Counted from the stretch's first letter, positions 8,372-50,247 are shown. The stretch is 64,000 bases of DNA from Thermoanaerobaculia bacterium (GCA_963719225.1 CAVRAY010000001.1:2272001-2336000); one strand, 5' to 3'. Translations and numbers: made by a program. Notes: generated from the sequence alone by a model not told the origin.

Positions 8372-8387
8372 GGCTACGCTCCCGAGC

Positions 8388-16845: not shown

Positions 16846-16949
16846 TCAGCGAGCGCGCCCGCGCGCCGGGGCTCCTTCCGCAGAAGGTCGATGACGCCGC
16901 GGCGCACCGGGTCGGCGAGCGCCGCGAGCGTCGCGTCGAGGTCGCTCAT
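16846..16949 (-). pseudogene. Truncated ArsR/SmtB HTH regulator (first ~35 codons only)
   Basis: MSDLDATLAALADPVRRGVIDLLRKEPRRAGALA starts with an ATGA overlap on the VOC gene. Similarity stops at the stop codon of the convergent gene. Confidence 0.7.
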
Positions 16950-18736: not shown

Positions 18737-21328
18737 TCAGCTCCCGATGCGGTGGATCCTCAGGATGGGGCCGTCGGGTGCGCCGGCATCCGTCAGGTCG
18801 ATGCTCGCGAAGATCGCCCAGGTGTGATCGCCCTTCGGGTCGAGGAGCGCGTGCGTGACCTCCCATTGCCTGGGCCCGATGGCTTTCAGGCGCGTCAGGT
18901 GGTGGAGACGCGCTTCGGCCCCCGAGAGAAGCTCGCCGTACTCGTCGAAGAAGGGCTTCGTCTCAGCCTCGAAGCGCTCCGCGTCCCAGGCGCCCTCGTC
19001 CGTGGCCGAGGGTCGAGTCGACTCGGGCTCCCGCCAGACGCGTTCCGCCGCCTCATCCCAGTCTTTCTTCGCGAGCGCCCGTACGAGAAGCTGCGCTTCC
19101 GCGCGGACGCGCGCCGCGAACACCCGCGGGTTCGACAGGAGCTCCGTGAGCCACGTTGCTTCCTTTTTCCTCGCCGGAGTCGGCACCACGTCCTTTTCCG
19201 CGAGGAGGAGCTCGGGATGTCGCATCCGCTCCCACTCTTCGAGAAGACTCGCGTCCGTCTCTCCGACGAGCGAGCGGAAGAAGCCGAGGACGTCCCAGAG
19301 CTCGTCGGTCTTCGCGGTCTCGGGCACCGTCTGGTCGAGCGTCCTGTAGAGCTGCGAGAGGTACCTGAGGAGGACACCTTCGCTACGCTCGATGCCGTAG
19401 CTCTTCACGTAGTCCGAAAAGCCGGCGAAAGTCTCGAACATCTCGCGTCCGATCGACTTGGGACTCACGTCCGAGCCGGCCGTCCAGGGGTGCGCGGCGC
19501 GGAACGCGTTGAAGGCGCCGTACAGGAAGTCCGCGAGCGGCTTGGGATGCGTCACCTCTTCGAGGCGCGCCATGCGCTCCTCGTAAGGGATGCCCTCTTC
19601 CTTCAGCTCCGCGACGAGCCTGCCCTTCGCCCGGTCCACCTGCCTGCGGAGAATCACGTCCGGGTCTTCCAGGATCGACTCGACGACGGTGAGGGCGTCG
19701 ACGGCGTATGTCGGGGACGCGGGATCGAGCTCTTCGAGCGCGGACAGGGCGAAAAGCGACAACGCCTGGTGGAGGGAGAAATCCCACTGCAGGTACTCGG
19801 CCACGACGACACGGTACGGGCGCCCCGGGGCGAGGCCGATGATCCCCGCCCGGTAGAGCGAGCGCACGAGGACGGCGGCCTGCTTGCGGAGCCGGCGCTT
19901 GGCGGCGTCCTCTTCGTGACAGCGCTCGATGAGGTCTCGCAAGGACGCGAAGTTGCGGGGCGCCGCCTCGCTCTCGTCCCGCTGGAGGAGAGACAGGACC
20001 ATCCCGTGCGTGAGCCGGAACCGCGACACCAGCGTTTCGGGCGGCCTCGAGATGAGCTTCCGGAACGTCTCGACCGTCCACGAGACGTCGCCCCTGGGCG
20101 GGCCCTTGAAAGTCCGCGACGTCTTCTTCCCCGAAGCCTCCGATCTCTTTTCCGCCTGCCGCTTCTCGACGATGTGCTCGGGCGCTTGCACGACGACGCT
20201 CCCCTTTTCGTCGAACCCGCGGCGGCCCGCGCGTCCCGAGATCTGCTTGAACTCGCGGATCGAGAGCAGCCCCACCTTCGTCCCGTCGAACTTCGCGAGC
20301 TTCGTGAAGAGGACCGTCCGGATCGGGATGTTCACGCCCACACCCAGCGTGTCGGTCCCGCAGATGACGTGGAGGAGCCCTCTCTGCGCGAGCTGCTCGA
20401 CGAGGAGGCGGTACTTCGGAAGGAGCCCGGCGTGATGGACTCCCACCCCGAACGAAAGGAACCTCCGGAACTCCTTGCCGTACGGCGTCGAGAGGCGGAT
20501 TCCGGCGACGACCTTCCGGATCTCCTCCCGCTCCTCGCGGGTCCCGATCTTCACGCTCGTGAGCGACTGCGCGAGCTCCGCGCACTCCCGCTGCGTGAAG
20601 TTCACGACGTAGACGGGGCTCTTCCTCGTGGCGAGGAGCTCTTCGATCGTCTCGTGGAGCGGCGTCTCGCGGTACTCGAAGTCGAGGGGGACCGGCCGCT
20701 CGTCGGACGACACGAGTGCCACTGCGCGTCCGGTGTCCTTCTCGAGCCGCGAGGCGATCGGGCTCGTGTCCCCGAGCGTCGCCGACATGAGGAGAAACTG
20801 GGTTTCCGGCAGGACGACGAGGGGGACCTGCCAGGCGACGCCGCGCTCCTTGTCGGCGTAATAGTGGAACTCGTCCATCACGACGTACGGAGCCTCGAGA
20901 GCCGGGCCGCGGCGGAGCGCCATGTTCGAGAGGACCTCCGCCGTGCAGCAGACGACGCTCGCCTCCCCGTTGATGCTCGCGTCACCCGTGAGCATGCCGA
21001 CGTTCTCGGGGCCGAGCTCGGCGCACAGCGAGAAGAACTTCTCGCTGGCGAGAGCCTTGATCGGGCTCGTGTAGAACGACACCTTGCCCTCGCAGATCGC
21101 CTTGAAGTGGAGGCCGAGAGCGACGAGCGACTTCCCCGAGCCCGTGGGCGTCCCGAGGATGACGTGCTTCCCGGCCATGACCTCGAGGAGCGCCTCCTCC
21201 TGCGCCGGGTAGAGGGTGAGACCGCTCGCCCAGACCCAGTCGAGGAAGAGGCTCAGGATCTCGTCGGGGTCGTTCGTCCCGCGGGGCGGGATCCGGTCCG
21301 CGAGGCGCGCACCGGGGCCAGGAGCCAC
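18737..21328 (-). CDS. Ski2/HelY-like DExH helicase with DUF3516-like C-terminus
   Basis: TPTGSGKS, PIKALASEK, DEFH, SAT, HHAGLLP, TDTLGVGVN, QISGRAGRRG. GTG 21328 overlaps the K1 TAG. Confidence 0.9.
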   Translation of the reverse strand: MAPGPGARLADRIPPRGTNDPDEILSLFLDWVWASGLTLYPAQEEALLEVMAGKHVILGTPTGSGKSLVALGLHFKAICEGKVSFYTSPIKALASEKFFSLCAELGPENVGMLTGDASINGEASVVCCTAEVLSNMALRRGPALEAPYVVMDEFHYYADKERGVAWQVPLVVLPETQFLLMSATLGDTSPIASRLEKDTGRAVALVSSDERPVPLDFEYRETPLHETIEELLATRKSPVYVVNFTQRECAELAQSLTSVKIGTREEREEIRKVVAGIRLSTPYGKEFRRFLSFGVGVHHAGLLPKYRLLVEQLAQRGLLHVICGTDTLGVGVNIPIRTVLFTKLAKFDGTKVGLLSIREFKQISGRAGRRGFDEKGSVVVQAPEHIVEKRQAEKRSEASGKKTSRTFKGPPRGDVSWTVETFRKLISRPPETLVSRFRLTHGMVLSLLQRDESEAAPRNFASLRDLIERCHEEDAAKRRLRKQAAVLVRSLYRAGIIGLAPGRPYRVVVAEYLQWDFSLHQALSLFALSALEELDPASPTYAVDALTVVESILEDPDVILRRQVDRAKGRLVAELKEEGIPYEERMARLEEVTHPKPLADFLYGAFNAFRAAHPWTAGSDVSPKSIGREMFETFAGFSDYVKSYGIERSEGVLLRYLSQLYRTLDQTVPETAKTDELWDVLGFFRSLVGETDASLLEEWERMRHPELLLAEKDVVPTPARKKEATWLTELLSNPRVFAARVRAEAQLLVRALAKKDWDEAAERVWREPESTRPSATDEGAWDAERFEAETKPFFDEYGELLSGAEARLHHLTRLKAIGPRQWEVTHALLDPKGDHTWAIFASIDLTDAGAPDGPILRIHRIGS

Positions 21329-24159
21329 TACCGCGATCCCGACGGCGCGAGGCGCTTGAGCTCCTGCGCAAAGTCCGAAACGAGGGTCACGTGGTTGGTC
21401 TCGAGCGTGCTCGCGGTCCCCTCCCGCGTCAGGACGAGAAACTTCTGGCCGTCCGGCGAGACGTCCCATCCGGCCGCGATCCGGCTGCCCATGTCGTACG
21501 ACTCGAGCCGGAAGAGCGTCTCCTCCTTCCCGAAGACCGGCGCGCCTCCCTCCGCCGAGACGCGGGTCGCCGCGACCGATCCGTCGCGGCGCAGGAAAAG
21601 CAGGGTCCCGTCGCGGCTCCAGCGCGGGTTCGAGCCCATCTGCTCCGAGACCTGCCATTTCGCGTCGCCGCCCGCGGCGCTCCGGACGAACACGTACCCG
21701 AGGCCTCCGTCGGTGGAGTCGTAGGCGAGCCAGCGACCATCCGGCGAGAAGACCGCGCCGCCCTCGTTCAAGGGACCGGCCACGACGATCGATGGCTCTC
21801 CGTCGGCTTCGCCATTCTTCAGCCGGATCACGCCGACGTCGAGCTGGGTCGCGGGCGTCGTCACCTGGTAGGCGAGCACCCGCCCGTCCGGCGAGAAGCT
21901 CGTCACTCCCAGGGTCCCCGCCGTCTTGAAGAGCAGACGCGGCGACCCCGAGCCGTCGGCCCGCTTCAGATACACGCCGCGGACCGTCGCGGGAGTGCCG
22001 CCCGGGCTCGTGACGAGCCCGAGCGATCGGTCGGACGTGAAGGCGACCTCGCGCCCGTCGGCGCTCCACACGGCCGTCTGACTGTCGCCTTCGAACGTGA
22101 GCTTCGAGAAGGCGTCGCGGGCGACGTCGTAGACCCAGACGTCGCTCTGCGTCCCGCCGCTGATCACGACGGCGGCGCGATTCCCGTCGGGCGCAAAACG
22201 CACGAACGCATAGCCGCGGGCCACGCCTGCCTTCTTCAGGACCGTCCCCTTCCGGTCGACGAGAGCGAGCTTGAAGACGGTTTCGTTCTCTCCCATGCGA
22301 TACGCGCAGGACCCCGAAGCCGACACGTCGATCTGGGCGCTGCCGTCGGAGGGCGCCTCGCCTCCGGTGGACGACATGATCTTCTCGAGGACCGGCACGG
22401 GACGCCCCGAGAGGACGAGCCGGCCCGCGTCGAAGGAGGCGGCGTAGATCGTGCCCTTCCGCGCGAAGAGGACGTGTCCGGACGGCGCCCAGCGCGGATA
22501 CGCTCCTCCCTTGTGGACGAGGGTCCTCTTCCCCGTCGCGAGCTCGACCGCCTCGACGTTCCCCTCGTCGTAGTCGGTGCCCGAGAACTGCGTCGAGAAG
22601 AGGACGGCCTTGCCGCCCGGAAGGGCCGCCGGCCAGCGGTGCGACCGCTCCCGCGCGGCGACGTCCGCCTTCGTCAGGGGCCTGGGCTCGCCGCCGTACG
22701 CCGAGACCTGCGAGAGGCCGCCCGTCGTCTGCGGCGCGAACACGATCGTGTCGTCCGACACCCACGCGCCGCCACGCGGGATGGACACGTCGCAGATCGT
22801 GGCCGGGGCGCCGCCCGAGACCGGCGCCTTGCGCAGCTTGCCGCGGGCGAAAAACCCGATCCACTTCCCGTCGGGCGAGAAGAAAGGGCTCAACGCGCCC
22901 TCCGACTCCGGGACCTCGACGGGAACCAGACGGTCGAGCCGCCTCAGGAAGAGGCGAGCCCGGGAGCCGCGCGTCACGTACGCGAGCAGGGTCCCGTCCG
23001 GCGAGACGACGACGGCGGCGCCCCCGCCGTCCATCAGCTCGTCGGACGAGAGGAGGATCTGGCCGCGTATGGACGGAACGGTTTGCCGGGCGCGAGCGCG
23101 CAGCGCGAGCGCCCCCGCCGCGGCCGCGAACGCGGCCGCAATCACCCAGGGGAGAAAGAGGGAGAGAGAGTTTTTGCTCCCTCTCGCCACTCTCGTCGCA
23201 TCGCGACGACCTACAGTGGGGCTGGGCACTGCGGTCTTTTCTTCGAAGGGTAATTGGCCGGAGGAGCTGGCCGTCGCGGCGAGCTCTTCGAGGTCCAGCC
23301 GCGCGTCTGCGATGTCGTGGAGGCGTTGCTTCGCCTCCCGCCTCAGACACTTTCCAAGCAACTCTCTTATCTTCCGGGGAGTCTTCTCCGGCAGCGCCGT
23401 CCAGTCCGGGTCTTTCGAGAGGATCGAGACGAGCGTGTCGCTGACGGTCTCCCCTTCGAAAGCGCGCTTGCCCGTCAGCATCTCGTAGAGCACGCACCCA
23501 AACGCCCAGACGTCCGTCCTTTTGTCGACCGGTTTCCCCCGCGCCTGCTCGGGCGACATGTACGCTGCCGTGCCCAGAATCATCCCGGCCGCTGTGGCGC
23601 GCGCCGTCAGCGTCGGCGAGTGGGTCACGGAAGGCGCCGAGGCCGCGCCTCCGTCCCCCTCGAAGATCTTCGCGAGGCCGAAGTCGAGAAGCTTCACGCG
23701 CCCGTCGGGCGTCACCTTTACGTTCGCGGGCTTGAGGTCGCGGTGGACGATCCCCTTCTCGTGCGCAGCCTCGAGCGCCTCGGCGATCTGTTTCGCGAAA
23801 GAAAGGGATTCTTCGAGTGGAAGAGGGCCGGACGAGAGGCGCTTCGCGAGGTCCTCCCCCTCGACGAGCTCCATGACGAGGAGGTGGCGCGTCGACGAGG
23901 AAGAAGACGAAGCGGGGATTTCTTCGAATGAATAGATGCCGGCGATGTTGGGATGGTTGAGCGCCGCGAGGAGTCGCGCTTCCCTCTCGAAGCGCTGTCT
24001 CCTCTCTTCACCTTCGAAGAATTCTTCCGGCAGGACCTTTAGGGCGACCTCTCGCGCGAGGCGAGCGTCCCGCGCCCGGTAGACCTCCCCCATTCCTCCC
24101 GCGCCGATCGCGCCGAGAATTTCGTAAGAACCGAGCTTCGCGCCTGTCTCGAGACTCAT
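21328..24159 (-). CDS. K1: Ser/Thr kinase-TM-TolB/PD40-like beta-propeller receptor
   Basis: [27 protein letters not shown] helix, multiple SPDG repeats. Confidence 0.95.
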   Translation of the reverse strand: MSLETGAKLGSYEILGAIGAGGMGEVYRARDARLAREVALKVLPEEFFEGEERRQRFEREARLLAALNHPNIAGIYSFEEIPASSSSSSTRHLLVMELVEGEDLAKRLSSGPLPLEESLSFAKQIAEALEAAHEKGIVHRDLKPANVKVTPDGRVKLLDFGLAKIFEGDGGAASAPSVTHSPTLTARATAAGMILGTAAYMSPEQARGKPVDKRTDVWAFGCVLYEMLTGKRAFEGETVSDTLVSILSKDPDWTALPEKTPRKIRELLGKCLRREAKQRLHDIADARLDLEELAATASSSGQLPFEEKTAVPSPTVGRRDATRVARGSKNSLSLFLPWVIAAAFAAAAGALALRARARQTVPSIRGQILLSSDELMDGGGAAVVVSPDGTLLAYVTRGSRARLFLRRLDRLVPVEVPESEGALSPFFSPDGKWIGFFARGKLRKAPVSGGAPATICDVSIPRGGAWVSDDTIVFAPQTTGGLSQVSAYGGEPRPLTKADVAARERSHRWPAALPGGKAVLFSTQFSGTDYDEGNVEAVELATGKRTLVHKGGAYPRWAPSGHVLFARKGTIYAASFDAGRLVLSGRPVPVLEKIMSSTGGEAPSDGSAQIDVSASGSCAYRMGENETVFKLALVDRKGTVLKKAGVARGYAFVRFAPDGNRAAVVISGGTQSDVWVYDVARDAFSKLTFEGDSQTAVWSADGREVAFTSDRSLGLVTSPGGTPATVRGVYLKRADGSGSPRLLFKTAGTLGVTSFSPDGRVLAYQVTTPATQLDVGVIRLKNGEADGEPSIVVAGPLNEGGAVFSPDGRWLAYDSTDGGLGYVFVRSAAGGDAKWQVSEQMGSNPRWSRDGTLLFLRRDGSVAATRVSAEGGAPVFGKEETLFRLESYDMGSRIAAGWDVSPDGQKFLVLTREGTASTLETNHVTLVSDFAQELKRLAPSGSR
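23090..23254. repeat. 165-bp juxtamembrane+TM cassette (other copies at 25845-26009, 42350-42514, 46824-46988)
   Basis: All four copies run GCGCGAGCGCGCAGCGCGAG...CTTCGAAGGGTAAT and have identical length. Confidence 0.85.
23917..24026. repeat. Intragenic box I/box II inverted motif pair, copy in K1
   Basis: GATTTCTTCGAATG at 23917 and CTCTTCACCTTCGAAGAATTCTT at 24004. Confidence 0.85.
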
Positions 24160-24169
24160 GGGCCTCGTT

Positions 24170-26923
24170 CTATCTTCCGATCGCAGGCCAGTTGAGAACG
24201 ACGACGGCGGGCTGATCCTGCCGGTCGTCGGCGGACGCGACGACGAGAAAGCGACTTCCGTCCGGGGCGGGCAGGTACTGGGAACGGCTGTCGGAGATCC
24301 CGTTCTGGGGCACGCGCACCGGGAAGAGAACCTTCGGGACGCCGACCTCGACGTCCCTCTTCAGGGACAGCTCGACTGCCATGAGCTTGCGGTCGCTCGA
24401 TAGGAAATAGAGCTCCCGCCCGTCTGCGCGCCAGAGCGGCTGGTCCCCGCCGTCCTTCGAGATCTGCCATTTCCCCCCCGACGGAGGGAACCTCTGAACG
24501 TACACCTCGGCGCGGCCCGTCTCGTCGGACACATACGCGAAGAACGCGCCGTCGGGCGACGGAGAGGCGTGAGCCGTGAATGCCTGCGGCGTACCGAGGA
24601 GGTGGACCGGCTTGCGCTCTCCGCGGAGCGGCAGCCTCCAGAGGTCGGAGCGGCCGCTTTCGTTCGGGCTTTCGTAAACGAGCCAGGCCCCGTCCGGCGA
24701 GATGAAGTCGCCGTAGTTGTCGAGCGAAGTGCCAAGGACCGGTTCGTCTCCGCCCGAGCCGTCCAGGGGGCGCCTGAAGAGGCCCATGCGCCCCTGACGG
24801 TTCGAGGAGAAATAGAGGAACTTGCCGTCCGGTGACGCCATCCCCGTGTTGTTGGCCTTGGGCCCGAACGTGAGCCGGGTCCACGTGCCGCGCACGAGGT
24901 CGATCTGCCAGAGGTCCGGAAGATCGGTGCGCTTGTCCGTCACGGCGATCCCGAGGCGCTGCGCGCCGAGGAACCAGAACGGTTCGAACATGACGGCGGG
25001 GTCCCCGACCGTCCCGAGGGACTTGCCCGCGCGATCGAACCACGTGAGTCTCTGCCGGGAGCTCGCCCGGCGCCTGTAGACGAGCGTGCCGTCTCCGCCG
25101 GCCGCGAAGGGCGCAAGACCCGTCCAGCCGCTTTCACCCTCGGCGACGATTCCGTCCACGACGAGCCCGGGCTCCCCGGACAGCCGGCGTCGGCCGGCGT
25201 CGAACACCTGCGCATAGAGCGAGCTCTCGCGTACGTAGAGGAGGCGGCCCGCGTCGTAGGCGGCCCATCCTCGCGTCGACACGACGAACGCGTCGTCGGT
25301 CGAGTCGAGGGAGGCGACGCGGATGCCGGTCCGAGCCGAGTCGTCGCTCAGGCAGAGGTAGAGGAAGTGGGATCCGTCCGGCAGCACCCTCGGCCAGCGG
25401 TGGGTGTAGTCCTTCGGGCCGAACGTCGTCGCCGGAACGGGGACTCCGCCCATCGCGCTGACCCGGTGGAGCGCGGTGCGGATCCCGGTGGAGAAGACGA
25501 TGACGCCTCGAGGGAGCCACGTTCCGCCGCGCCCATCCGTGACCGGGCAGATCGTCTGGGTCGGTCCCCCAGCCGCGCTCACGCGCGCGAGACGGTCGCC
25601 CGTGAAGAAGGCAATCGCGGTTCCGTCCGGGGACCAGAACGGGAACCGCGCGCCCTCGGTCTCGGCGAGAACCTGGGCGCCGATGGAGTCGAACGAGCGG
25701 ACGTAGAGCCGCTCGACGTCTTTCTCGTCCGACGCGACGAAAACGAGCCGGCGCCCGTCCGGCGAGACCGCCATCGAGTTGCCGAAGGACGTTCCCTCGG
25801 GAACCCGGACCTCGAACTGGACGGCTGGCGCGTCCCGCCGCGGGGCGCGAGCGCGCAGCGCGAGCGCCCCCGCCGCGGCCGCGCACGCTGCCGCAATCGC
25901 CCAGGGGAGAAAGAGGGAGAGAGAGTTCTTGCTCCCTCTCTCTCGACTCGCAGAAGCGCTTCGACCTACAGTGGGGCTCGGCGCCGCGGTCTTTTCTTCG
26001 AAGGGTAATAAGGGAGACGAGCTCCCGGCGCCGGCTGCGCCCAATTCCTCGAGGTCGAGGCGTGCGTCGGCGATGTCGTGCAGTCTCAGCCGTGCATCGC
26101 GCTGCAAGCACCTTCCAAGGATCTTTCTTATCGCCGCCGGCGTCTGCGCCGGCAGCGCCGCATAGTCGGGCTCTTTCGTGAGGATCGCCGCGAGCACGTC
26201 CGTCACAGTCTCCCCCTCGAAGGCGCGCTTGCCCGTCAGCATCTCGTAGAGCACGCAACCGAAGGCCCAGATGTCCGTCCGCTTGTCGAGCGCCTTACCC
26301 CGCGCCTGCTCGGGCGACATGTACGCGGCCGTCCCGAGGATCACGCCCGCCGCCGTGGCACGCGCCGTCATTGTCGGCGAGTGCGTGATGGACGGTGCGG
26401 AGCCAGGGACGGAATCCCCCTCGAGGATCTTCGCGAGGCCGAAGTCGAGGAGCTTGACCCGCCCGTCGGGCGTCAGCTTGACGTTCGCCGGCTTGAGGTC
26501 GCGGTGGACGATCCCCTTCTCGTGCGCCGTCTCCAGCGCCTCGGCGATCTGCTTCGCGTAGGAAAGAGACTCTTCGAGTGGAAGAGGGCCGGAGGAAATC
26601 CTCTGTGCGAGGTCCTCTCCCTCGACGAGCTCCATGACGAGGAGGTGACGAGTCGCAGGAGAAGAAGAAGACGAAGAGGGGATTTCTTCGAATGAGTAGA
26701 TCGCGGCAATTCCAGGATGGTTCAGCGCCGCGAGGAGCCGCGCTTCCCTCTCGAAACGCTGCCTCCTCTCTTCACCTTCAAAGAATTCTTCCGGCAGGAC
26801 CTTGATGGCGACCTCTCTCGCGAGGCGAGGGTCCCGCGCCCGGTACACCTCTCCCATCCCGCCCGCGCCGAGGGGCGAGAGCATCTCGTAGGGGCCGAGC
26901 TTCGTGCCGGGAGCGACCGTCAC
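24170..26923 (-). CDS. K2: Ser/Thr kinase-TM-beta-propeller receptor
   Basis: Same kinase motifs, TM and WSPDG/SPDG repeats. 917 aa. Confidence 0.95.
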   Translation of the reverse strand: MTVAPGTKLGPYEMLSPLGAGGMGEVYRARDPRLAREVAIKVLPEEFFEGEERRQRFEREARLLAALNHPGIAAIYSFEEIPSSSSSSPATRHLLVMELVEGEDLAQRISSGPLPLEESLSYAKQIAEALETAHEKGIVHRDLKPANVKLTPDGRVKLLDFGLAKILEGDSVPGSAPSITHSPTMTARATAAGVILGTAAYMSPEQARGKALDKRTDIWAFGCVLYEMLTGKRAFEGETVTDVLAAILTKEPDYAALPAQTPAAIRKILGRCLQRDARLRLHDIADARLDLEELGAAGAGSSSPLLPFEEKTAAPSPTVGRSASASRERGSKNSLSLFLPWAIAAACAAAAGALALRARAPRRDAPAVQFEVRVPEGTSFGNSMAVSPDGRRLVFVASDEKDVERLYVRSFDSIGAQVLAETEGARFPFWSPDGTAIAFFTGDRLARVSAAGGPTQTICPVTDGRGGTWLPRGVIVFSTGIRTALHRVSAMGGVPVPATTFGPKDYTHRWPRVLPDGSHFLYLCLSDDSARTGIRVASLDSTDDAFVVSTRGWAAYDAGRLLYVRESSLYAQVFDAGRRRLSGEPGLVVDGIVAEGESGWTGLAPFAAGGDGTLVYRRRASSRQRLTWFDRAGKSLGTVGDPAVMFEPFWFLGAQRLGIAVTDKRTDLPDLWQIDLVRGTWTRLTFGPKANNTGMASPDGKFLYFSSNRQGRMGLFRRPLDGSGGDEPVLGTSLDNYGDFISPDGAWLVYESPNESGRSDLWRLPLRGERKPVHLLGTPQAFTAHASPSPDGAFFAYVSDETGRAEVYVQRFPPSGGKWQISKDGGDQPLWRADGRELYFLSSDRKLMAVELSLKRDVEVGVPKVLFPVRVPQNGISDSRSQYLPAPDGSRFLVVASADDRQDQPAVVVLNWPAIGR
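26681..26790. repeat. Box I/box II pair, copy in K2
   Basis: GATTTCTTCGAATG at 26681 and CTCTTCACCTTCAAAGAATTCTT at 26768. Confidence 0.85.
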
Positions 26924-26924
26924 G

Positions 26925-40067: not shown

Positions 40068-40666
40068 GGTTCCTCCTCGATCACGATCTCATCCCCGTCC
40101 ATCGACCTGATCCTGACGAGTGCCTCGACGGGTACGCCCAGGGATGCGACCGCATCGCGGCCACCCTCGAACGCCTTCTCGATGAGCGCGCCGACGCCGA
40201 CGATGCGCGCCCCGGCAGCGCCCGCGAGGCGGGCGAGGCCGAGGATCGTCGCGCCGGACGCGAGGAAGTCGTCCACGATGAGGACGCGCTCGGCGGCACC
40301 GAGGTACTCGGGTGAAACGATGAGCTCCACCGTGCGCCCCTTCGTGTGCGATGGCGCCAGGGTCAGGAAGACCTGGTCGGGCATCGTGATCGGCTTGCTC
40401 TTGCGGGCATAGACGACCGGGATCCCGAGGTGGAGGGCCGTGGCGACCGCGGGGGCGATGCCCGAAATCTCGGCGGTGAGCACCTTCGTCGCGCCCTCCG
40501 GCGCGAAGCGCCGGGCCAGCTCCTTCCCGCAGGTGTCCATGAGACGGGGATCCACCTGGTGGTTGATAAAGCCGTCCACCTTCAGGATCCCGCCACCGAG
40601 GTTGCAGCCGTCGCGCCGGATCCGGTCTGCGAGGAGCGCGTGCGCGCCCGTGGCGATCGGACTCAT
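40064..40666 (-). CDS. xpt: Xanthine phosphoribosyltransferase
   Basis: ILKVDGFINHQVDP.LM, VLTAEISGIAPA, PRPP-binding VLIVDDFLASG, IEKAFEGGR. 200 aa with RTGA overlaps at both ends. Confidence 0.93.
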   Translation of the reverse strand: MSPIATGAHALLADRIRRDGCNLGGGILKVDGFINHQVDPRLMDTCGKELARRFAPEGATKVLTAEISGIAPAVATALHLGIPVVYARKSKPITMPDQVFLTLAPSHTKGRTVELIVSPEYLGAAERVLIVDDFLASGATILGLARLAGAAGARIVGVGALIEKAFEGGRDAVASLGVPVEALVRIRSMDGDEIVIEEEP

Positions 40667-43431
40667 TTCCTGCCGCTCCGCTCCGCCGGCCAGTTCACGA
40701 CGAGGTCGAGCAGGGCATTGGGCTTCTGGCCCTCGCCGACGACGAGGAGGCGCTCGTGGTCGGCCGTCGGGGAGAAGCCCGGCGCCGCCGGGCTCGGGCC
40801 GGGGGCGCGCATGAGGGGCCGGCTCGCACCGACCTCGAGGCTCTCCCCCCGCGACTCGACGCTCACCGCCCGGACGATTCCGGACGTGTCGTGATACAGG
40901 ATTTCCTTGCCGTCGGCGCTCCAGAACGCGTACGCGCCCCCTTCGGTCGAGATCTGCCACTTCCGGCCGGCGCGCGGGAAGGAAGTGGCGTACACCTCCC
41001 AGCGGCCGGACTCGTCGGAGCTGTAGGGTAGCCACTTCCCGTCGGGCGAAAGCGGCGAGGCGACGAGGCTCGCTTTCGACTTGAGGACGACCTCCTGCGC
41101 GTGCGTGGCGTCGAGCGCGAGCGTCCGGATTTCCGCGCCCGGCGCATCGCCCCACTGGACGAACACGATCTTGCCTCCGTCCGGCGTCCAGGCCGACGCC
41201 TCCTTGTCGATGTCCGAGACGAGAAGGGGCTCCTCGTCTCCGGTGCCGTCGAGCGACTTGCGAAAGAGGTCCTCGTGGCCCTTTCGGACCGAGGAAAAGA
41301 CGATGGACCGCCCGTCCGGGGACCAGAGCGGCGACCGGTCGTTCGCGGGGTCGAACGTGAAGCGCGTCCTCACGCCGCGCGCCACGTCCACGATCCAGAT
41401 GTCGTAGGTGGACGTCGCGGCATCGAGGGCCGTCACGGCCGCGAGCTTGCCGTCGGGCGAAAGCACGGCGCCCTGATACTCGCCGGCCTCGCCAACGTAC
41501 TCGGCCGCCTTGCCATCGCGGGTGAACCACCGGAGCCGCGACGCGAGGTCCCCGCGCGCTCCCTGCGTCACGAGAACGCCGTTCTGCGACGCCGAGAAGC
41601 AGGCGATCGCCGTCTGGACCGACGGCATCACGATGCGGTCCACGAGAGGAGACGCCTCGCCCGTGAAAGTTCCATTCGCGTCGATCGGGCGCGCCATCAG
41701 CGTCGCGTCGCGCAGGTAGAGGAGATGGCCCGAGGCGAACTGGGGTGCGGCCGGAGAGCGCAGGAGGACCTTCTCGGCCCCCCCGTCGAGAGACGCGAGG
41801 ACGATCGGGAACCCTTCCGCGGCGGACGCCGCCGAGCGCGCAACGTAGAGGAACCGCTTCCCGTCGGGCAGGAACCGCGGGTGGCGGTGTGAGTTGTCGC
41901 CGCGCTTGAAGTCGATCTTCGTGACTTCGACCGAGTCCCCACCCTTTTCGGAGACCTTGAAGATCGATGTGTTCGCCGAGGGCGCGAAGAGGACGACGCC
42001 CACGGGGCTCCAGGCGCCACCCTTTCCTTCGGGCGCCGGGCAGAGCGTCAGCACCGACCCGTCCGCGACGCCGATCGTCTTCAGCTTCCCGGGCACGAAA
42101 AAGCCCAACGAGCGGCTGTCAGGCGACCAGAACGGGTACTGCGCGCCCTCGGTGTTCGGAAGCACCCGCGCTTCGGCGGCGTCCAGCGGGCGGACGTAGA
42201 GGTTCACCTTCCCGACGCCGTCCGCCGCCGAGAACGCGACGGATTTCCCGTCCGGCGAGACGATGGCCGGGCCAGGGGTGTTGGACTCGAGCCAGAAGCT
42301 CGTGCCCTCCGGAGGCGAGATTCGCGCGCGAACGACCGGCGCCCCCGGGGCGCGAGCGCGCAGCGCGAGTGCCCCAGCCGCGGCCGCGAACGCGGCCGCA
42401 ATCGCCCAGGGGAGAAAGAGGGAGAAAGACTTTTTGTTCCCTCGCTCCAGTCTCGTCCGTTCTGTGCTTGCTACAGCGGGGCTGGGCAACGCGGTCTTTT
42501 CTTCGAAGGGTAATGAGGAAGACGAGGTCGCCGCGCCGGCTGCGCTCAATTCCTCGAGGTCCAGCCTCGCATCGGCGATGTCGTGGAGGCGCTGCTTCGC
42601 GTCCCGCCTCAGGCACTTTCTGAGAATCTCCTTGACCTTCTCCGGTGTTCCCACCGGCAGCGCCTCCCAGTCCGGCTCACCTCTCAGGATCGCCGCGAGC
42701 GTGTCGGAGACGGTCTCGCCTTCGAAAGCGCGCTTGCCCGCGAGCATCTCGTAGAGAACGCAACCGAACGCCCAGACGTCCGTCCGCTTGTCGACCGTCT
42801 TTCCCCGCGCCTGCTCGGGGCTCATGTACGCCGCCGTCCCGAGGATCACGCCCGCCGCCGTCGCGCGCGCCGTCAGCGTCGGCGAATGCGTGACGCCCGC
42901 ACCCGACCCCGCGACCGAATCCCCCTCGAACATCTTCGCGAGGCCGAAGTCCAGGAGCTTCACGCGGCCCTCGGGCGTGACCTTCACGTTCGCGGGTTTC
43001 AGGTCCCGATGCACGATCGCCTTCTCGTGCGCGGACTCCAGCGCCTCGGCGATCTGACGGGCATATGAAAGAGATTCTTCGAGGGAAAGAGGGCCCGACG
43101 CGAGGCGCATTGCGAGGTCTTCTCCCTCGACCAGCTCCATCACGAGGAGATGCCGGGTCGACGGAGAGGAAGAGGAGGAAGAAGAGGGGATTTCTTCGAA
43201 TGCGTAAAGAACGGCGATTCCGGGATGATTCAGGCTCGCGAGCATCCGAGCTTCGCGCTCGAACCTCTGCCGCCTCTCTTCACCTTCGAAGAATTCTTCC
43301 GGCAAGACCTTCAGTGCCACCGCCCGATCGATGCGAACGTCCTTCGCCCGATAGACCTCTCCCATCCCTCCCGCGCCCAAGGGGTCGGTGATCTCGTAAG
43401 AGCCGAGCCTCGTCCCCGTCGCGAACGTCAC
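40663..43431 (-). CDS. K8: Ser/Thr kinase-TM-beta-propeller receptor (922 aa)
   Basis: GTG start (TFATGTRLG) at 43431. HRDLKPAN, DFG, SPDG repeats. Confidence 0.95.
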   Translation of the reverse strand: MTFATGTRLGSYEITDPLGAGGMGEVYRAKDVRIDRAVALKVLPEEFFEGEERRQRFEREARMLASLNHPGIAVLYAFEEIPSSSSSSSPSTRHLLVMELVEGEDLAMRLASGPLSLEESLSYARQIAEALESAHEKAIVHRDLKPANVKVTPEGRVKLLDFGLAKMFEGDSVAGSGAGVTHSPTLTARATAAGVILGTAAYMSPEQARGKTVDKRTDVWAFGCVLYEMLAGKRAFEGETVSDTLAAILRGEPDWEALPVGTPEKVKEILRKCLRRDAKQRLHDIADARLDLEELSAAGAATSSSSLPFEEKTALPSPAVASTERTRLERGNKKSFSLFLPWAIAAAFAAAAGALALRARAPGAPVVRARISPPEGTSFWLESNTPGPAIVSPDGKSVAFSAADGVGKVNLYVRPLDAAEARVLPNTEGAQYPFWSPDSRSLGFFVPGKLKTIGVADGSVLTLCPAPEGKGGAWSPVGVVLFAPSANTSIFKVSEKGGDSVEVTKIDFKRGDNSHRHPRFLPDGKRFLYVARSAASAAEGFPIVLASLDGGAEKVLLRSPAAPQFASGHLLYLRDATLMARPIDANGTFTGEASPLVDRIVMPSVQTAIACFSASQNGVLVTQGARGDLASRLRWFTRDGKAAEYVGEAGEYQGAVLSPDGKLAAVTALDAATSTYDIWIVDVARGVRTRFTFDPANDRSPLWSPDGRSIVFSSVRKGHEDLFRKSLDGTGDEEPLLVSDIDKEASAWTPDGGKIVFVQWGDAPGAEIRTLALDATHAQEVVLKSKASLVASPLSPDGKWLPYSSDESGRWEVYATSFPRAGRKWQISTEGGAYAFWSADGKEILYHDTSGIVRAVSVESRGESLEVGASRPLMRAPGPSPAAPGFSPTADHERLLVVGEGQKPNALLDLVVNWPAERSGRK
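43189..43298. repeat. Box I/box II pair, copy in K8
   Basis: GATTTCTTCGAATG at 43189 and CTCTTCACCTTCGAAGAATTCTT at 43276. Confidence 0.85.
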
Positions 43432-45086
43432 TTCGCGTCGTCCTTCAGCCCCAGCATCTCCCACCGCTGGAGGGAGAGCGGGACGTTCCCATTCTTGTAG
43501 ACGAAGTCGTGGAACGCGCGCAGCCGGAACGAGTCGCCCTGCGCCTTCTTCGCTTCGGCGAGGAGCCGCAAAACCTGGAGCTTCCCGATCTGGTACGTGA
43601 TCGCCTGTCCGGGCGACGACGCGAACGCCGCCGCCTCGGCTCGCGCGGTTTCGGCATCCATCGGGACTGCGGTCCTGAGGTACTCGGCCGCTTGTGGGAT
43701 CGTGAACGTCCCGAGCGCGAGCCTGACGTCCACCTCGACGCGCAGAGCCCTCAGGCGCATGTAGTTCGCGACCATCTCGCGTGTCTTCGGCGCGTCCGCG
43801 TAGAGGCCGGTCGAGAGGAGCAGCTCCTCGGAGTAGAACGCGAGGCCCTCGATCGGGCCGGAGTCGTAGAACGCTCGGCGGATCTCGTCCTCGTGCCGCG
43901 ACGCGAGCGCGAGCTGGAACGCGTGCCCCGGGATCCCCTCGTGCGACATGTGCGGACGCCGGTCCTTCGCCATCGAACCCGCGAAGTAGCCGAGCTTCGC
44001 GGACGGCTTCGGGATCCAGCGGATCGAGGGCTCGCCCGGCCGCGCCGTGTTCGCGAAAAGAGTCCACTCGCCGAAGCCGTCCAGCGCCTCGAGGTACGGC
44101 GGCACGGGCAGGTCGACGTAGCGCGGAAGGTCTGCGGGCACGCTCGCGATCCCCTTCTCCTCGAGGAACCGCCGGATCTCGGCCTCGGCGCGTGCCGTCA
44201 TCGCCGACTGGGCGGCCTGGTTCGGGACCATCGCGAGCTCGGGCGCGCCCGTGTTGCGCTGGCGCTCGTAGACCTCGAGCGCAACGGAGCGGTCGTACTC
44301 CTGCCGGCCCATGAGGAGCAGCTCCTCCGGCGTGAACGGTACGAGAGCGACCTCGCGGAGGAAGAAGAGATAGCCGTCGCGGCCGACCGGCTTCCGGTCC
44401 GACAGCAGCGGCAGACGGGCCTCGAGCCAGACCCTGAAGGACTCCAGCGCCGCGATCGCGCTTTCCGTTGCCGGGCCGACGCGCGCGCGCGCGTCCGGAG
44501 CGAGAAATGGGGAGAGCGCCGCCATGGACGCCTTCAGCTTCAAGCCGATCCTCTGCAGATCCTCGATCGCGAGCTTCGTGAACGGCGCGGCGGCTTCGTG
44601 GAGCATGGCTTGCGCCTGATCCAGCGTGCGCGGGATCGACTCCAGCCGCACCGCGAGGTCCGTGCTGCGCGCCTCGTCGAAGGGTGGCGGCGACAGCATC
44701 GCGTCCACGAGAACCGGCAGCGTCTGGTCCACCCAGAACGTCGGGTCGCGCCGCCACGAGCGCTTGACGTCCAGCTCCCAGCGCACGCGCGCGAGAGCCG
44801 AGCCGATCAGGCGCCGATCCACTTGCCACGGGACCGGACGCGACGGATCGGCGAGCGCCTTCAGGCGTTCCTCGAAGAGGACGAGCGTCCGGCGCCGGGT
44901 CTCGATGGAGTCCGCCGACCAGTCGGGCGCCCAGCCGTGCGGCCGGACGACTCGCGCCACGTCGTCGCGGTCCATCGGCTTCGTGACCGCGCGCCAGGAC
45001 CAGAAGTCGCGGGAAAGCGTCAGGAGGTCGTCGGCCGCGGCCGGGCACGCGAAGGACAGCACGAGTGCGATCGCGACGGATCTCAT
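43428..45086 (-). CDS. Exported DUF885 family protein
   Basis: Signal peptide MRSVAIALVLSFACPAAA, HEGIPGH.FQL, EG.AFYSEE, PGQAITYQIGK, LR.FHD. Confidence 0.85.
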   Translation of the reverse strand: MRSVAIALVLSFACPAAADDLLTLSRDFWSWRAVTKPMDRDDVARVVRPHGWAPDWSADSIETRRRTLVLFEERLKALADPSRPVPWQVDRRLIGSALARVRWELDVKRSWRRDPTFWVDQTLPVLVDAMLSPPPFDEARSTDLAVRLESIPRTLDQAQAMLHEAAAPFTKLAIEDLQRIGLKLKASMAALSPFLAPDARARVGPATESAIAALESFRVWLEARLPLLSDRKPVGRDGYLFFLREVALVPFTPEELLLMGRQEYDRSVALEVYERQRNTGAPELAMVPNQAAQSAMTARAEAEIRRFLEEKGIASVPADLPRYVDLPVPPYLEALDGFGEWTLFANTARPGEPSIRWIPKPSAKLGYFAGSMAKDRRPHMSHEGIPGHAFQLALASRHEDEIRRAFYDSGPIEGLAFYSEELLLSTGLYADAPKTREMVANYMRLRALRVEVDVRLALGTFTIPQAAEYLRTAVPMDAETARAEAAAFASSPGQAITYQIGKLQVLRLLAEAKKAQGDSFRLRAFHDFVYKNGNVPLSLQRWEMLGLKDDAK

Positions 45087-47893
45087 TTCGTCTTCACCGT
45101 CACGGCCCAGTTCTGGACGAGGGTCAGCGGCGTCGAGGCCTTCTCGGTGACGACCGCGTTCACGATGAACTTCTGCCCGTCCGGGAACGGGTCGTACTGG
45201 GGGATGTTCGTCCGCCGACTCTGCAGCGTGAACAGCTCGTGCGGCGTGCCTTTCTCGAACGCCGCTCCGGTCTTCACACTCACCGAGGTGAGGCGGAATC
45301 CTTCCGCGAGGTAGAAGAGCTCGCGTCCGTCGCGGCTCCACCTCGGCTGGGAGCCTCCTCCCGCGGAGATTTGCCATTTCCCCCCGGCGCCGCTCGACGG
45401 CCGGACGTAGACCTCCTGCCTCCCGGTCTCGTTGGACATGTACGCGACCCAGAGACCGTCTCGGGAGAAGGCCGCGTCGCGTTCCGAAGCCGGCGTGCGC
45501 AGGAACTCGCGAGCCTTGCCGTCGGCGGCGGAGAGCAGCCAGATGTCGTCCGCCATCTCCGCCGTCGAGCCGTTGTAGACGATGAACCGTCCGTCGGGAG
45601 TCCAGTCCGTCAGAAACTTGGATCCGGGGGAAAGGAAGGCGTCCGCCGGCGAGGAGACGGGCGCCGAACCTGTCGGCGCCGCCCGGGCGACGATCCGCTC
45701 CTCGTCGCCGCCCACGAGGGTCTTCTCGAAGATGAACCACAGGCCCTTCCGGAAGGAGCCGAACGCAAAGCGCCTCCCGTCCGGAGAGAAAACGGGCGTG
45801 TAGTCGTCACCGGGATCGAACGTCCGTCGTACTGGTTGCTCCGCACCGACCGCGTCGAACGTCCAGATGTCGCGATTGCTGCTCACGGGGTCGATCAATT
45901 CCGTGACGACGAGCCTTCCATCCGGCGACACGCGCGGAGTCCAGTAGTTCCCGACGTCTCCCAGCGTGCGAAGGACCTTTCCGGCGCGGTCGTAAACCGC
46001 AAGTCGGGAGTTTCCGATCGTCCCCCCCGCGGCGTAGGCGAGGAGGCCTCCCGCGGAGGCGGTGAAGATGCCGGTTCCGCCGTCCGCGAGGTACTGGACG
46101 CGCGGCACCAGGACGATCGGATCGCCGGTCGTCTCGAGCCGGCCGGCGTCGAACGCCTGCGCCATGAGACTCCCGTTCCACGAATAGAGGAGGTGGCCGG
46201 GGACGTAGATCGCGCGGGTCGCGGCCCTGACGAGCAACTTCCTTTCCTTGTGGCCGACGGCCTGGACATAGAGCTCGCTCTCGTTCCGCCGCGTCTCCCG
46301 GTCGACGCGCTGGACGATGTAGAGAAAATGCACCCCGTCCGGAAGAAACTGCGGCCACTGGTGGGAGCTCTCTCCACGCGTCTCGTCCACCGTCGTGACC
46401 TGCACGCGCTCTTTTCGTCCCGGCATGATTCTGAAGATCGCGTTGAGCAGCGCCGGCGAATAAAGGATCGTGCCGTCCGGGCCCCACGCGGCTCCGCGGC
46501 CGGGACCGCTCGCCGCGATGAACTCGACCGCGCCGCCCGAAGAGGGAATGGCCGCGAGGCCCGTCGCCTGGCCCATGAAGCCGATCATCCGGCCGTCCGA
46601 TGACCAGAACACGTTCCGCACGGCCTCCGTGCCGGGAAGCAGAAGCGACTCGCCGGACGCGAGGGACCTCACGCAAAGCTGGTTCTTCTTTCCGTCCGTG
46701 ACGAGGAACGCGAGCCGCGAGCCGTCCGGCGAGAGGACGGGGGGACCGCCGAGAAGGTCGAATGTCCAGCCTTCCGGCGGCAGGAGCGACGCCGTCAGGC
46801 TCGACGCCGCCGGCGACTGCGGGGCGCGAGCGCGCAGCGCGAGCGCCCCCGCCGCGGCCGCGCACGCGGCCGCAATCGCCCAGGGCAGAAAGATAGAGAG
46901 AGAGGTTTTGCTCCTCCTCTCACGACTCGCTCGTTCCGCGCTTGCTACAGTGGGGCTGGGCACGGCTGCATTTGCTTCGAAGGGTAATTGGCCGGATATG
47001 CCAGCCGTCGCGGCCGTCTCCTCCTCGAGGGCGATGCGCGCGTCCCCGATGTCCCGCAGGCGCTGCTTGGCGTCGCGCTGAAGGCACCTGCGCAGCAGCT
47101 CTTTCACCTTCGAGGAAATCGGCGCGCGAAGCGCGCTCCAGTCCGGCTCTTTCATGAGGATCGCCGCCAGCGTGTCGCTCACGGTCTCCCCTTCGAAGGC
47201 CCTCTTCCCGGTCAGCATCTCGAAGAACACACACCCGAACGCCCAGACGTCCGTCCGCTTGTCGACGGGCTTTCCGCGCGCCTGCTCGGGACTCATGTAC
47301 GCCGCCGTCCCCAGGATCACCCCCGCCGCCGTCGCCCGCGCCGTGAGTGTCGGCGAGTGCGTCACGCCCGCGGAGGACGCGGAGGTTCCGTCCCCTTCGA
47401 AGATCTTCGCGAGACCGAAGTCCAGGAGCTTCACGCGCCCTTCGGGTGTGACCTTCACGTTCGCGGGTTTCAGGTCCCGGTGCACGATTCCCTTCTCGTG
47501 CGCGGCCTCCAGCGCCTCGGCGATCTGCTTCGCAAGAGAAAGCGATTCTTCGAGTGGAAGAGGGCCCGACGCGAGGCGCACCGCGAGATCTTCCCCCTCG
47601 ACCAGCTCCATGACGAGGAGATGGCGGGACGATGAAGAAGAGGAAGAGGGGATTTCTTCGAATGAGTAGATCGACGCGATCCCCGGATGATTCAGGCTCG
47701 CCAGGGCGCGCGCTTCCCTTTCGAAACGCGTCCTTCTCTCTTCACCTTCAAAGAATTCTTCCGGCAAGACCTTGACCGCGACATCACGATTGAGGCGAGG
47801 GTCCTTCGCCCGATAGACCTCTCCCATTCCCCCAGCACCGAGAGGCGCAAGAATTTCGTACGGTCCGAGTCGGACGCCAGAAGCAATCGTCAC
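45083..47893 (-). CDS. K9: Ser/Thr kinase-TM-beta-propeller receptor, first gene of the array
   Basis: Kinase motifs, TM and SPDG repeats. 936 aa. Confidence 0.95.
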   Translation of the reverse strand: MTIASGVRLGPYEILAPLGAGGMGEVYRAKDPRLNRDVAVKVLPEEFFEGEERRTRFEREARALASLNHPGIASIYSFEEIPSSSSSSSRHLLVMELVEGEDLAVRLASGPLPLEESLSLAKQIAEALEAAHEKGIVHRDLKPANVKVTPEGRVKLLDFGLAKIFEGDGTSASSAGVTHSPTLTARATAAGVILGTAAYMSPEQARGKPVDKRTDVWAFGCVFFEMLTGKRAFEGETVSDTLAAILMKEPDWSALRAPISSKVKELLRRCLQRDAKQRLRDIGDARIALEEETAATAGISGQLPFEANAAVPSPTVASAERASRERRSKTSLSIFLPWAIAAACAAAAGALALRARAPQSPAASSLTASLLPPEGWTFDLLGGPPVLSPDGSRLAFLVTDGKKNQLCVRSLASGESLLLPGTEAVRNVFWSSDGRMIGFMGQATGLAAIPSSGGAVEFIAASGPGRGAAWGPDGTILYSPALLNAIFRIMPGRKERVQVTTVDETRGESSHQWPQFLPDGVHFLYIVQRVDRETRRNESELYVQAVGHKERKLLVRAATRAIYVPGHLLYSWNGSLMAQAFDAGRLETTGDPIVLVPRVQYLADGGTGIFTASAGGLLAYAAGGTIGNSRLAVYDRAGKVLRTLGDVGNYWTPRVSPDGRLVVTELIDPVSSNRDIWTFDAVGAEQPVRRTFDPGDDYTPVFSPDGRRFAFGSFRKGLWFIFEKTLVGGDEERIVARAAPTGSAPVSSPADAFLSPGSKFLTDWTPDGRFIVYNGSTAEMADDIWLLSAADGKAREFLRTPASERDAAFSRDGLWVAYMSNETGRQEVYVRPSSGAGGKWQISAGGGSQPRWSRDGRELFYLAEGFRLTSVSVKTGAAFEKGTPHELFTLQSRRTNIPQYDPFPDGQKFIVNAVVTEKASTPLTLVQNWAVTVKTK
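47651..47760. repeat. Box I/box II pair, copy in K9
   Basis: GATTTCTTCGAATG at 47651 and CTCTTCACCTTCAAAGAATTCTT at 47738. Confidence 0.85.
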
Positions 47894-47905
47894 GTGTTTG
47901 ACCGG

Positions 47906-47911
47906 ATTCTA
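47906..47911 (-). promoter_or_regulatory. Candidate -10 element (TAGAAT) for the kinase array, near-leaderless
   Basis: TAGAAT lies 12 nt upstream of the K9 GTG. No SD and no clear -35. Confidence 0.35.
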
Positions 47912-47958
47912 GCCGCGAATGTGAAGGAGGGTATGCGCTTTGCACGAATTTCCGCGCG

Positions 47959-48909
47959 ATGGAGGACTATATGGAAGAAATGACAAGGACGACGAGAAGG
48001 TCGAGCGGAATTCGCACGATGGTGGTCGCGAGCGCGGTCGGCGTGATGCTCGCAACCGGGGGCTGCGCGTACAAGGAGCGCGACCAGCTCCGCGCCGAAA
48101 AGGTGCAGCTCACAGCCGAGAAGCAAAAGCTCTCGGATCAGCTGCAATCGATCCAGTCCCAATCGGCCGACGCGAACGCGACGCTGGACGAGGTGCAGAA
48201 GAGCCTGGAAGAAATCCGCGCCAAGGAGCTGAAGGTCATCCAGTCCTCGATCCGGGTGGCCCAGGAAGGACAGGGAAAAACTGCCGGACGTGAGCGGCTC
48301 GAGGCCGAGCTCCAGATGATCCGGGACGCCGTCCACAAAAACCTGGCGAAGCTCGCGCGCCTCGAAAAGGCGAACAAGGCGAGCGGCATCCGTGTCGCAT
48401 CGCTCGAGAAGCTCGGCGAGGAGCTCAAGAAGTCGCTCGAGGAGAAGGCGGCGACGGTCGCCGAGCTCGAGAGAAGGGTCGGGGACCTCTCCAAGACGGT
48501 CCAGACGCAGGCGACGAGCATCGCGGAGAAGGAAGAGACAATTCACAAGGGAGAGACCGAAGTCGCACAGAAGACCAAGGAGCTCAACACCGCGTACGTG
48601 GCGGTCGCCTCCAAGAACGTCCTGCAGAAGAAGGGTGTCGTCGAGAAGAGGGGCTCCATCGCCGGTCTCGGCGGCCGGTGGATCGAGACCGGCAAGTTCG
48701 ATCCCGAGGTCTTCCGCGAGATCGACGTCACGAAGGAGATGGAGGTCGCGATCCCCGCGCCCGCTTCGAAGGTGCAGGTCGTGACCGCGCAGCCGAAAGA
48801 GAGCTACGAGATCGTGGACGGCGGCCCGACCGGCTCGAGGCTCGCCGTGAAGGATCCCTCCGCGTTCTGGAAAGGCGACCGGTATCTCGTCGTGATGATT
48901 CCCAACTGA
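47959..48909 (+). CDS. Coiled-coil lipoprotein of unknown function
   Basis: Lipobox-like LATGGC, long heptad region, C-terminal ..I/V.DP..FW....YLVV motif. Start may be downstream (47980). Confidence 0.8.
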   Translation: MEDYMEEMTRTTRRSSGIRTMVVASAVGVMLATGGCAYKERDQLRAEKVQLTAEKQKLSDQLQSIQSQSADANATLDEVQKSLEEIRAKELKVIQSSIRVAQEGQGKTAGRERLEAELQMIRDAVHKNLAKLARLEKANKASGIRVASLEKLGEELKKSLEEKAATVAELERRVGDLSKTVQTQATSIAEKEETIHKGETEVAQKTKELNTAYVAVASKNVLQKKGVVEKRGSIAGLGGRWIETGKFDPEVFREIDVTKEMEVAIPAPASKVQVVTAQPKESYEIVDGGPTGSRLAVKDPSAFWKGDRYLVVMIPN

Positions 48910-50245: not shown

Positions 50246-50247
50246 GA

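Follow-up and report, generated by a model that had tools for sequence, protein, structure and literature searches.

In the genome of a Thermoanaerobaculia bacterium, an acidobacterium of soil type, a stretch of 64,000 nucleotides (GCA_963719225.1 CAVRAY010000001.1:2272001-2336000; hereafter the window) carries nine genes for Ser/Thr kinases, each continued by a transmembrane (TM) segment and a predicted double beta-propeller ectodomain. The genes lie co-oriented and head to tail on the minus strand (21328-47893; 26,566 bp) and raise the question of whether such a row represents ordinary paralogues, a quickly diversifying immune-like repertoire or a set of sensors exchanged by recombination. 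The evidence points to a probable receptor kinase operon whose old sensor cassettes have probably been reshuffled between relatives, likely by homologous recombination in the shared 5' end of the kinase genes. Recombination in the array is real, goes beyond ordinary paralogy and has a precedented mechanism. Read in this way, the array looks like a sensor repertoire that is reshuffled slowly, and it shows how a bacterium can maintain many receptor kinases that remain exchangeable, with recombination in a single lobe dealing out sensors intact and re-wiring the lobes of ancient kinase subtypes.

The genes are numbered from the low coordinate, following the initial annotation of the stretch, gene 9 being the first in the operon. 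From gene 9 to the helicase gene behind gene 1, nine of the eleven junctions overlap and the other two have gaps of 1 and 10 nt, a spacing by which the row is likely a single operon. All nine products show Pkinase and PD40 family matches and possess intact catalytic elements: the Gly loop, VAxK, the alphaC Glu, HRDxKPxN, DFG and an APE-like YMxPEQ motif. Kinase and sensor are linked in each product by a single hydrophobic segment, as judged by hydropathy only (KD19 1.86-2.23, next best at most 1.54). The C-lobe tree contains three old (starred) clades, namely subtype A (genes 1, 2, 8 and 9), subtype B (genes 4, 5 and 7) and subtype C (genes 3 and 6). The distal C-lobes are 35-51% identical across subtypes, and the N-lobes of all nine are 68-89% identical. 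The ectodomains, of about 540 residues, form two classes with 17-24% identity across classes and 29-66% inside a class. The co-oriented gene row, the VAxK, HRDxKPxN and DFG motifs, the three subtypes and the two divergent ectodomain classes had all been recognized in the initial annotation and are borne out. Gene 5, however, is frameshifted, and two passenger genes, encoding a DUF885 protein and a phosphoribosyltransferase, interrupt the series.

The replacement of the N-lobe is the first line of evidence. In other families, each C-lobe subtype has its own N-lobe; in this genus, one N-lobe type (termed here the swept N-lobe) stands on all three ancient subtypes, and partly so in the sister genus. 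This type makes up 85 of 100 N-lobes in the same-genus arrays, vs 0 of 51 in two other families. A DNA motif that occurs genome-wide, present here in two copies, encodes its odd residues at the start of alphaC and in the Ser-rich beta4-beta5 loop. When these residues are masked, identity among the swept N-lobes of the three subtypes is still 0.74-0.80, vs 0.67-0.69 to the ancestral lobe of their own subtype. Trees were computed with IQ-TREE from 41 of 97 rows (all nine own genes and a random draw per class), leaving aside the frameshifted genes of genomes G006 and G004a and kinases outside the A/B/C classes. The C-lobe tree requires two subtype changes and rejects the swept genes as a single clade (approximately unbiased (AU) test, p-AU 2.5e-105), and the N-lobe tree, with motif-coded columns removed, has ten subtype changes and two N-lobe-type changes. 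Compared with its orthologue in the sister genus (G050), gene 7 has a distal N-lobe of 46% identity, but its C-lobe reaches 87% and its ectodomain 76%, and the change occurs at the hinge; for two such cross-genus pairs the values are 42-46%, 84-87% and 76-78%. Synonymous divergence is higher in the N-lobe than in the C-lobe in 31 of 33 pairs sharing the same ectodomain. Genes 5 and 7 share a tract of about 166 nt with two mismatches, the sole clearly recent tract in this genome. The constant part of the receptors is homogenised, as the initial annotation had claimed, though mainly in the N-lobe.

The genome has 68 open reading frames with a kinase-domain match. Kinases unlinked to the array carry the swept N-lobe as well, so that the sweep reaches beyond it; they lie near 1361k, 1632k, 1645k, 1738k, 3708k and 3839k on contig C1 and 144k on contig C2 of this genome (G000). 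Two of these have a different C-terminal part, presumably TPR-like. A four-gene array of the same genus (L045; G012 C17 27001-47000) has ancestral, motif-free N-lobes, three of them near-identical, and is possibly a recent import.

The second line of evidence is the arrangement of arrays in relatives, read from 19 stretches and 5 more and compared between species, not between strains; an unpublished genome (G019) was counted in presence tallies only. Among the 27 genomes of the order that were searched, all have class A ectodomains and 26 have class B, and all 23 loci matching the N-lobe DNA pattern (185,579 species searched) are titled Thermoanaerobaculia or Acidobacteriota. Most arrays contain 4-17 kinase starts (up to 17 in G013, 14 in G001, 13 in G025). 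No two arrays read have the same order, and content varies as well. The claim of a recombination-diversified array therefore holds, because domain trees are incongruent and gene order and content are not fixed.

The junctions show which unit moves. Sequences upstream of start codons are 0.62-0.73 identical when the upstream ectodomain is the same and the own ectodomain different (26 pairs), 0.31-0.36 in the converse case (54 pairs), and 0.29-0.30 in the unrelated background (1262 pairs); this pattern is partly trivial where genes overlap, and holds after long spacers too. The spacer after a gene is set by the ectodomain of that gene, whatever comes next; the gene-3-type ectodomain, for instance, keeps the same 5-nt offset ahead of three different named ectodomain types. 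In five relatives, the conserved leader stands before two ectodomain types other than that of gene 9. Since spacer, start codon and leader all track the upstream gene, the junctions lie at or after the start codon, at or in the kinase 5' end. The moving unit is thus formed by C-lobe, TM segment, ectodomain and spacer or passenger gene, up to the next kinase start. C-lobe and ectodomain mostly stay coupled, with two clear cross-subtype kinase swaps in 27 multi-member ectodomain clusters; the junction of these swaps lies in the juxtamembrane/TM stretch, and swaps inside subtypes also occur.

The precedent is the lpl cluster of Staphylococcus aureus, for which the consulted parts of the account of Tsuru and Kobayashi (2008) describe a conserved stretch within each ORF (open reading frame) as the recombination site, the kept unit extending from the 3' part of a gene across the spacer into the 5' part of its neighbour (PMC2568036). 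The shuffling unit is the same here, order and content vary among genomes in both systems, and the corresponding features are present: 5' and 3' trees are incongruent, and the 3' part, spacer and next start are kept as a unit. In contrast to lpl, the present genes encode receptor kinases, the shared stretch is a 5' N-lobe that has crossed three ancient subtypes and contains a genome-wide motif pair, and the comparison is across species. RecA-type unequal crossing-over, gene conversion and inter-species cassette exchange, following the model put forward for lpl, would produce such a pattern over evolutionary time.

Several points weigh against this reading: (i) the N-lobe tree rests on 65 columns, and its AU tests are borderline (p 0.05 vs the B clade, 0.068 vs the C clade); (ii) identity of paralogues at fourfold sites is barely higher within than between genomes (e.g. 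0.54 vs 0.50); (iii) the DUF885, globin, glycosyltransferase and aminotransferase passengers each follow at least two ectodomains; (iv) one genome per species was compared, and a number of arrays stop at a contig end or contain frameshifts. Regarding the second point, 77 high-identity tracts between paralogues of the same genome, seen in relatives, have ends scattered along the whole kinase domain, and with so slight a within-genome excess of identity this indicates conversion that is homologous and slow. As to the third, passengers not tied to one ectodomain imply that junctions also fall at start codons via short similarity; in one case the passenger follows another ectodomain via a remnant of a kinase start. 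The passengers observed in relatives' arrays (L021-L024, L030-L035, L042) are DUF885 and globin-, glycosyltransferase-, hydrolase- and, on the opposite strand, aminotransferase-like genes, these "-like" labels coming from sequence reading and not from a family scan.

Concerning function, the receptors resemble PknB-type Hanks kinases in their kinase-TM-extracytoplasmic sensor layout, in the catalytic motifs and in an equivalent of PknB Leu33. This position, located by a K-7 register that is taken to apply to these kinases, is Leu in eight genes and Ile in one. As far as the available portion of the PknB report goes, the dimer interface is centred on the N-lobe, with Leu33 entering the alphaC-beta4/5 pocket of the partner (10.64898/2026.10.08.757607). 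The swept segment takes in both flanks of the corresponding pocket. Because Leu or Ile is kept in all nine genes and the swept segment flanks a PknB-type pocket, the N-lobe may be viewed as an exchangeable activation module, and C-lobe, TM segment and sensor as the functional cassette. A ligand bound to the periplasmic double propeller would bring about a back-to-back kinase dimer through the N-lobe, as in PknB. With the swept N-lobe as the predicted dimerisation module, cross-activation among all the receptors is conceivable, so that any receptor could activate any other; the C-lobe would keep substrate choice tied to its sensor, and cassette order would set the promoter-proximal sensor. Complex prediction for the gene 4 and gene 3 kinase domains scored 0.25, below the mark for a verdict. 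The array offers a natural test of the separability of N-lobe and C-lobe for activation vs substrate choice.

Both ectodomain classes are modelled as all-beta (predicted local distance difference test, pLDDT, 89). Residues 260-532 of the class A model match a TolB six-bladed propeller (Z 27.9, root-mean-square deviation 2.5, 254 aligned), and the match to the propeller sensor of PknD (1rwi) has Z 19.5. The fold search covers the class A model, and the class B fold rests on its all-beta model and a TolB profile match, TolB being matched by the profiles of both classes. Length and strand count suggest two propellers per sensor. PknB carries a PASTA sensor and PknD one NHL propeller; the present receptors differ from them in their presumed two TolB/PD40-like propellers and in the tandem array. 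By analogy with the TolB-like fold, the ligands would most likely be envelope peptides or proteins. No phosphatase or FHA gene has been found among the window proteins scanned.

The alternative that survives best, although unlikely, assigns the sweep to the motif itself: a putative uptake or recombination factor would read the motif pair and favour motif-bearing N-lobe DNA as donor, spreading one N-lobe through the receptor family and making the array a recombination hot spot, in effect an integrase-free integron of receptor kinases. The motif is low in GC, has the core CTTC(T/G)AAGAA and occurs at about 730-860 sites genome-wide; a score of 20 gives 732, vs 112 for the reversed control. Its sites form divergent pairs spaced by 55-200 bp, of which there are 355, and 17 pairs have the other orientation. 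A pair at 83 bp is present in all nine N-lobes, all 25 matches of the window lie inside kinase genes (23248-47746), and the array is the densest 27-kb cluster of motif pairs in the genome (10). Both sites are found in the N-lobe of 14 of 66 kinases, five of them outside the array, and 62 of the 85 swept N-lobes in same-genus arrays carry both motif halves, the swept type being absent from the other families as noted above. The motif is present in all 29 genomes of the genus, this one among them, and in 5 of 8 of the sister genus, with single matches at most elsewhere among the 151 compared. It is 6x denser between genes than inside them, peaks around the GC-skew maximum, is 2-4x denser in the inferred terminus half, and has been written over purM, tmk and other genes, in the first two without indels and with retention in several species. 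The DNA uptake sequences of Neisseriaceae and Pasteurellaceae, described in the sections consulted as hundreds of lineage-specific motif copies, are alike in their lineage-specific over-representation, their writing into coding DNA and their peptide imprint (PMC2817400). Unlike them, the present motif forms divergent pairs and favours the terminus half.

A ComEC-type gene in the genome would fit such a reader; however, ComEC is common, being found in 10 of 14 control genomes. Genus g12, which is motif-free, homogenises its kinases too (G048, ten genes: N-lobe 78%, C-lobe 73%, ectodomain 25%), and in genome G032 the swept N-lobe peptide is present although its DNA scores weakly for the motif. 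The ends of conversion tracts do not coincide with the motif, whose arms have neither excess complementarity (18.93 vs 18.80 +/- 0.18) nor helical phasing. No recombinase is linked to the array among the window proteins scanned, and the genes near the densest motif clusters include no candidate reader. If the motif did drive the sweep, a DNA signal would drive protein-domain evolution, giving dozens of sensors one activation interface, and sensors would trade cassettes between species and be re-ranked behind a common promoter. In any case, the array gives this genus-wide motif a definite site at which any influence on recombination is measurable. Subtype A kinases have extra single motif copies in the juxtamembrane linker (23248, 26003, 42508) and after the hinge (23818, 43084, 47555), and their linker resembles non-kinase stretches at about 1749600, 1078550 and 1910370 of G000 C1. 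In arrays of the motif-free genus (L107-L109 of G048, L110-L111 of G044), nearly all sensors, one of class B included, stand on subtype A kinases, which is whole-kinase homogenisation.

The initial annotation had suggested that the array could be a surveillance or immune-like repertoire resembling plant clusters of receptor-like kinases (RLK) and nucleotide-binding leucine-rich repeat receptors (NLR); on such a reading, the sensors would diversify quickly against phages or competitors. Such plant clusters are made of tandem receptors with birth-and-death turnover and domain swaps. The array shares these features, and turnover of presence and order, ectodomain distances that fail to follow the distances between hosts (Spearman 0.19, n=26, non-independent) and an ectodomain dN/dS (0.09-0.31, 33 orthologous pairs) slightly over that of the helicase (0.14-0.19, 10 pairs) speak for the idea. 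It is nevertheless improbable, as neither hypervariable nor positively selected sensor surfaces were detected by tests at pairwise and window rather than single-site level: in nine ectodomain clusters no 20-codon window exceeds a pN/pS of 0.68, and positive selection was not found at either level. Mosaic ectodomains were not found either, only three windows in 65 ectodomains being nearer another cluster, each by at most two residues. PADLOC gave no match for the two ectodomains tested and generic matches for the kinase domain, and the passengers look metabolic or envelope-related. Acidobacterial Ser/Thr kinase (STK) paralogues are reported, in the portion of the study consulted, to be under purifying selection (PMC3174227). 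The sensors are old orthologous classes under purifying selection, moved intact; what differs from one repertoire to another is which sensors are present, their order and their kinase partner, with no sign of hypermutation. The immune reading is therefore unsupported, the selection check itself counting against diversified sensors, and the evidence does not give bacteria an NLR-like variable receptor system. The ectodomain of gene 4 has a counterpart in genus g12 with 83% identity, vs 68% for a PurM fragment; this suggests cross-genus exchange or unusually strong constraint.

Ordinary ancient paralogues, with an N-lobe likeness due to strong constraint and convergent motif writing, are a very improbable explanation that is already largely refuted. 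The subtypes and ectodomain classes do predate the genus, the motif arose over purM and tmk by substitution with no recombination-sized change, and certain neighbour pairs are found repeatedly (gene 4 next to gene 3, in five genomes); but the likeness persists after motif masking, orthologue alignments change abruptly at the hinge, a near-identical tract is common to genes 5 and 7, and order is not conserved. Consulted parts of the literature describe expanded kinase-WD40/TPR repertoires in Planctomycetota, Myxobacteria and Solibacter, with tandem duplicates and with purifying selection (PMC11032199, PMC3174227). The lineage-specific expansion of membrane kinases with propeller or TPR sensors is common to these and the present family; N-lobe replacement across subtypes and cassette shuffling, by contrast, are absent from those accounts as far as consulted, and the term "gene conversion" has no occurrence in PMC11032199. 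The idea that a dedicated site-specific recombinase acts at the motif pair, as in an integron or shufflon, hardly deserves credence either. In its favour, the pair spacing (mostly 55-130 bp) resembles presumed attC lengths, each cassette has one pair, and different cassettes follow the conserved leader. Against it, no recombinase or transposase family was found in the 45 window proteins scanned, the nearest of six tyrosine recombinases is about 290 kb off, arms do not covary, tracts are not pinned to the motif and most motif pairs lie in unrelated genes and spacers. An attC-like hairpin was also considered and rejected, with neither arm covariation nor phasing. Homologous reshuffling of sensor cassettes accordingly remains the preferred reading of the array, whose features are listed in Table 1.

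Table 1. Features of the receptor kinase array and its borders, in order of transcription, followed by the N-lobe motif pairs.
Feature	Position	Strand	Remarks
Promoter-like conserved leader	47894..47917	-	24 nt before gene 9 start; function inferred
Receptor kinase gene 9	45083..47893	-	C-lobe subtype A, ectodomain class A
DUF885 passenger gene	43428..45086	-	changes place within relatives' arrays
Receptor kinase gene 8	40663..43431	-	subtype A, class A; in G005 ectodomain on subtype C kinase
Phosphoribosyltransferase (xpt-like) passenger gene	40064..40666	-	
Receptor kinase gene 7	37458..40067	-	subtype B, class B; N-lobe replaced vs sister-genus orthologue
Recent conversion tract in gene 7	39849..40016	-	partner in gene 5; ends approximate
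Receptor kinase gene 6	34750..37461	-	subtype C, class A
Receptor kinase gene 5	32158..34753	-	subtype B, class B; open frame stops at 32300
Gene 5 partner copy of gene 7 tract	34535..34702	-	ends approximate
Receptor kinase gene 4	29579..32161	-	subtype B, class B; all-beta ectodomain model, pLDDT 89
Receptor kinase gene 3	26925..29582	-	subtype C, class A; model similar to TolB propeller, Z 26.6-27.9
Receptor kinase gene 2	24170..26923	-	subtype A, class A
Receptor kinase gene 1	21328..24159	-	subtype A, class A; in G013 ectodomain on subtype B kinase
DUF3516 DEAD-box helicase	18737..21328	-	coupled to last kinase here; neighbour, outside system
Gene 1 N-lobe motif pair	23905..24035	.	cores 23929 minus, 24012 plus, 83 bp apart
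Gene 2 motif pair cores	26693/26776		
Gene 3 motif pair cores	29352/29435		
Gene 4 motif pair cores	31931/32014		
Gene 5 motif pair cores	34523/34606		
Gene 6 motif pair cores	37231/37314		
Gene 7 motif pair cores	39837/39920		
Gene 8 motif pair cores	43201/43284		
Gene 9 motif pair cores	47663/47746		

The frameshift of gene 5 lies near 32315 in a CT dinucleotide run, and the last ~45 residues are missing as assembled. It is likely, although unproven, that this is an assembly error, because purM is frameshifted in the same two-contig assembly (G000 C1 901500-902583) and G/C runs of 11 are over-represented. No sequencing-run record spans the break; the best share is 0.08, and the runs include no RNA holder.

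The coordinates given in the initial annotation start at 18737 and so include the DUF3516 helicase. In none of 13 same-genus genomes, two of them with a short upstream flank, does a kinase gene stand upstream of the helicase, which therefore does not belong to the array as a constant member and was ruled out as its anchor. In two relatives (L013, G001 C12; L007, G006 C20) a family kinase begins just downstream of the DUF3516 helicase, mirroring the arrangement here. At the other end, neither a sigma-70 promoter nor a terminator was scored ahead of gene 9, leader included. A divergent gene for a coiled-coil protein (47959-48909) has a short intergenic region in common with the array leader.

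Elsewhere in the window, phospholipase D-like matches lie in two separate frames at 48933-51541, perhaps because a frameshift has broken a single gene. A run at 98-2696 and 16946-17404 consists of glyoxalase/VOC, DoxX and YCII genes. At 5834-8954, an extracytoplasmic function (ECF) sigma factor gene stands beside a kinase-TPR gene, the tenth kinase of the window, which belongs to another clade and is motif-free.

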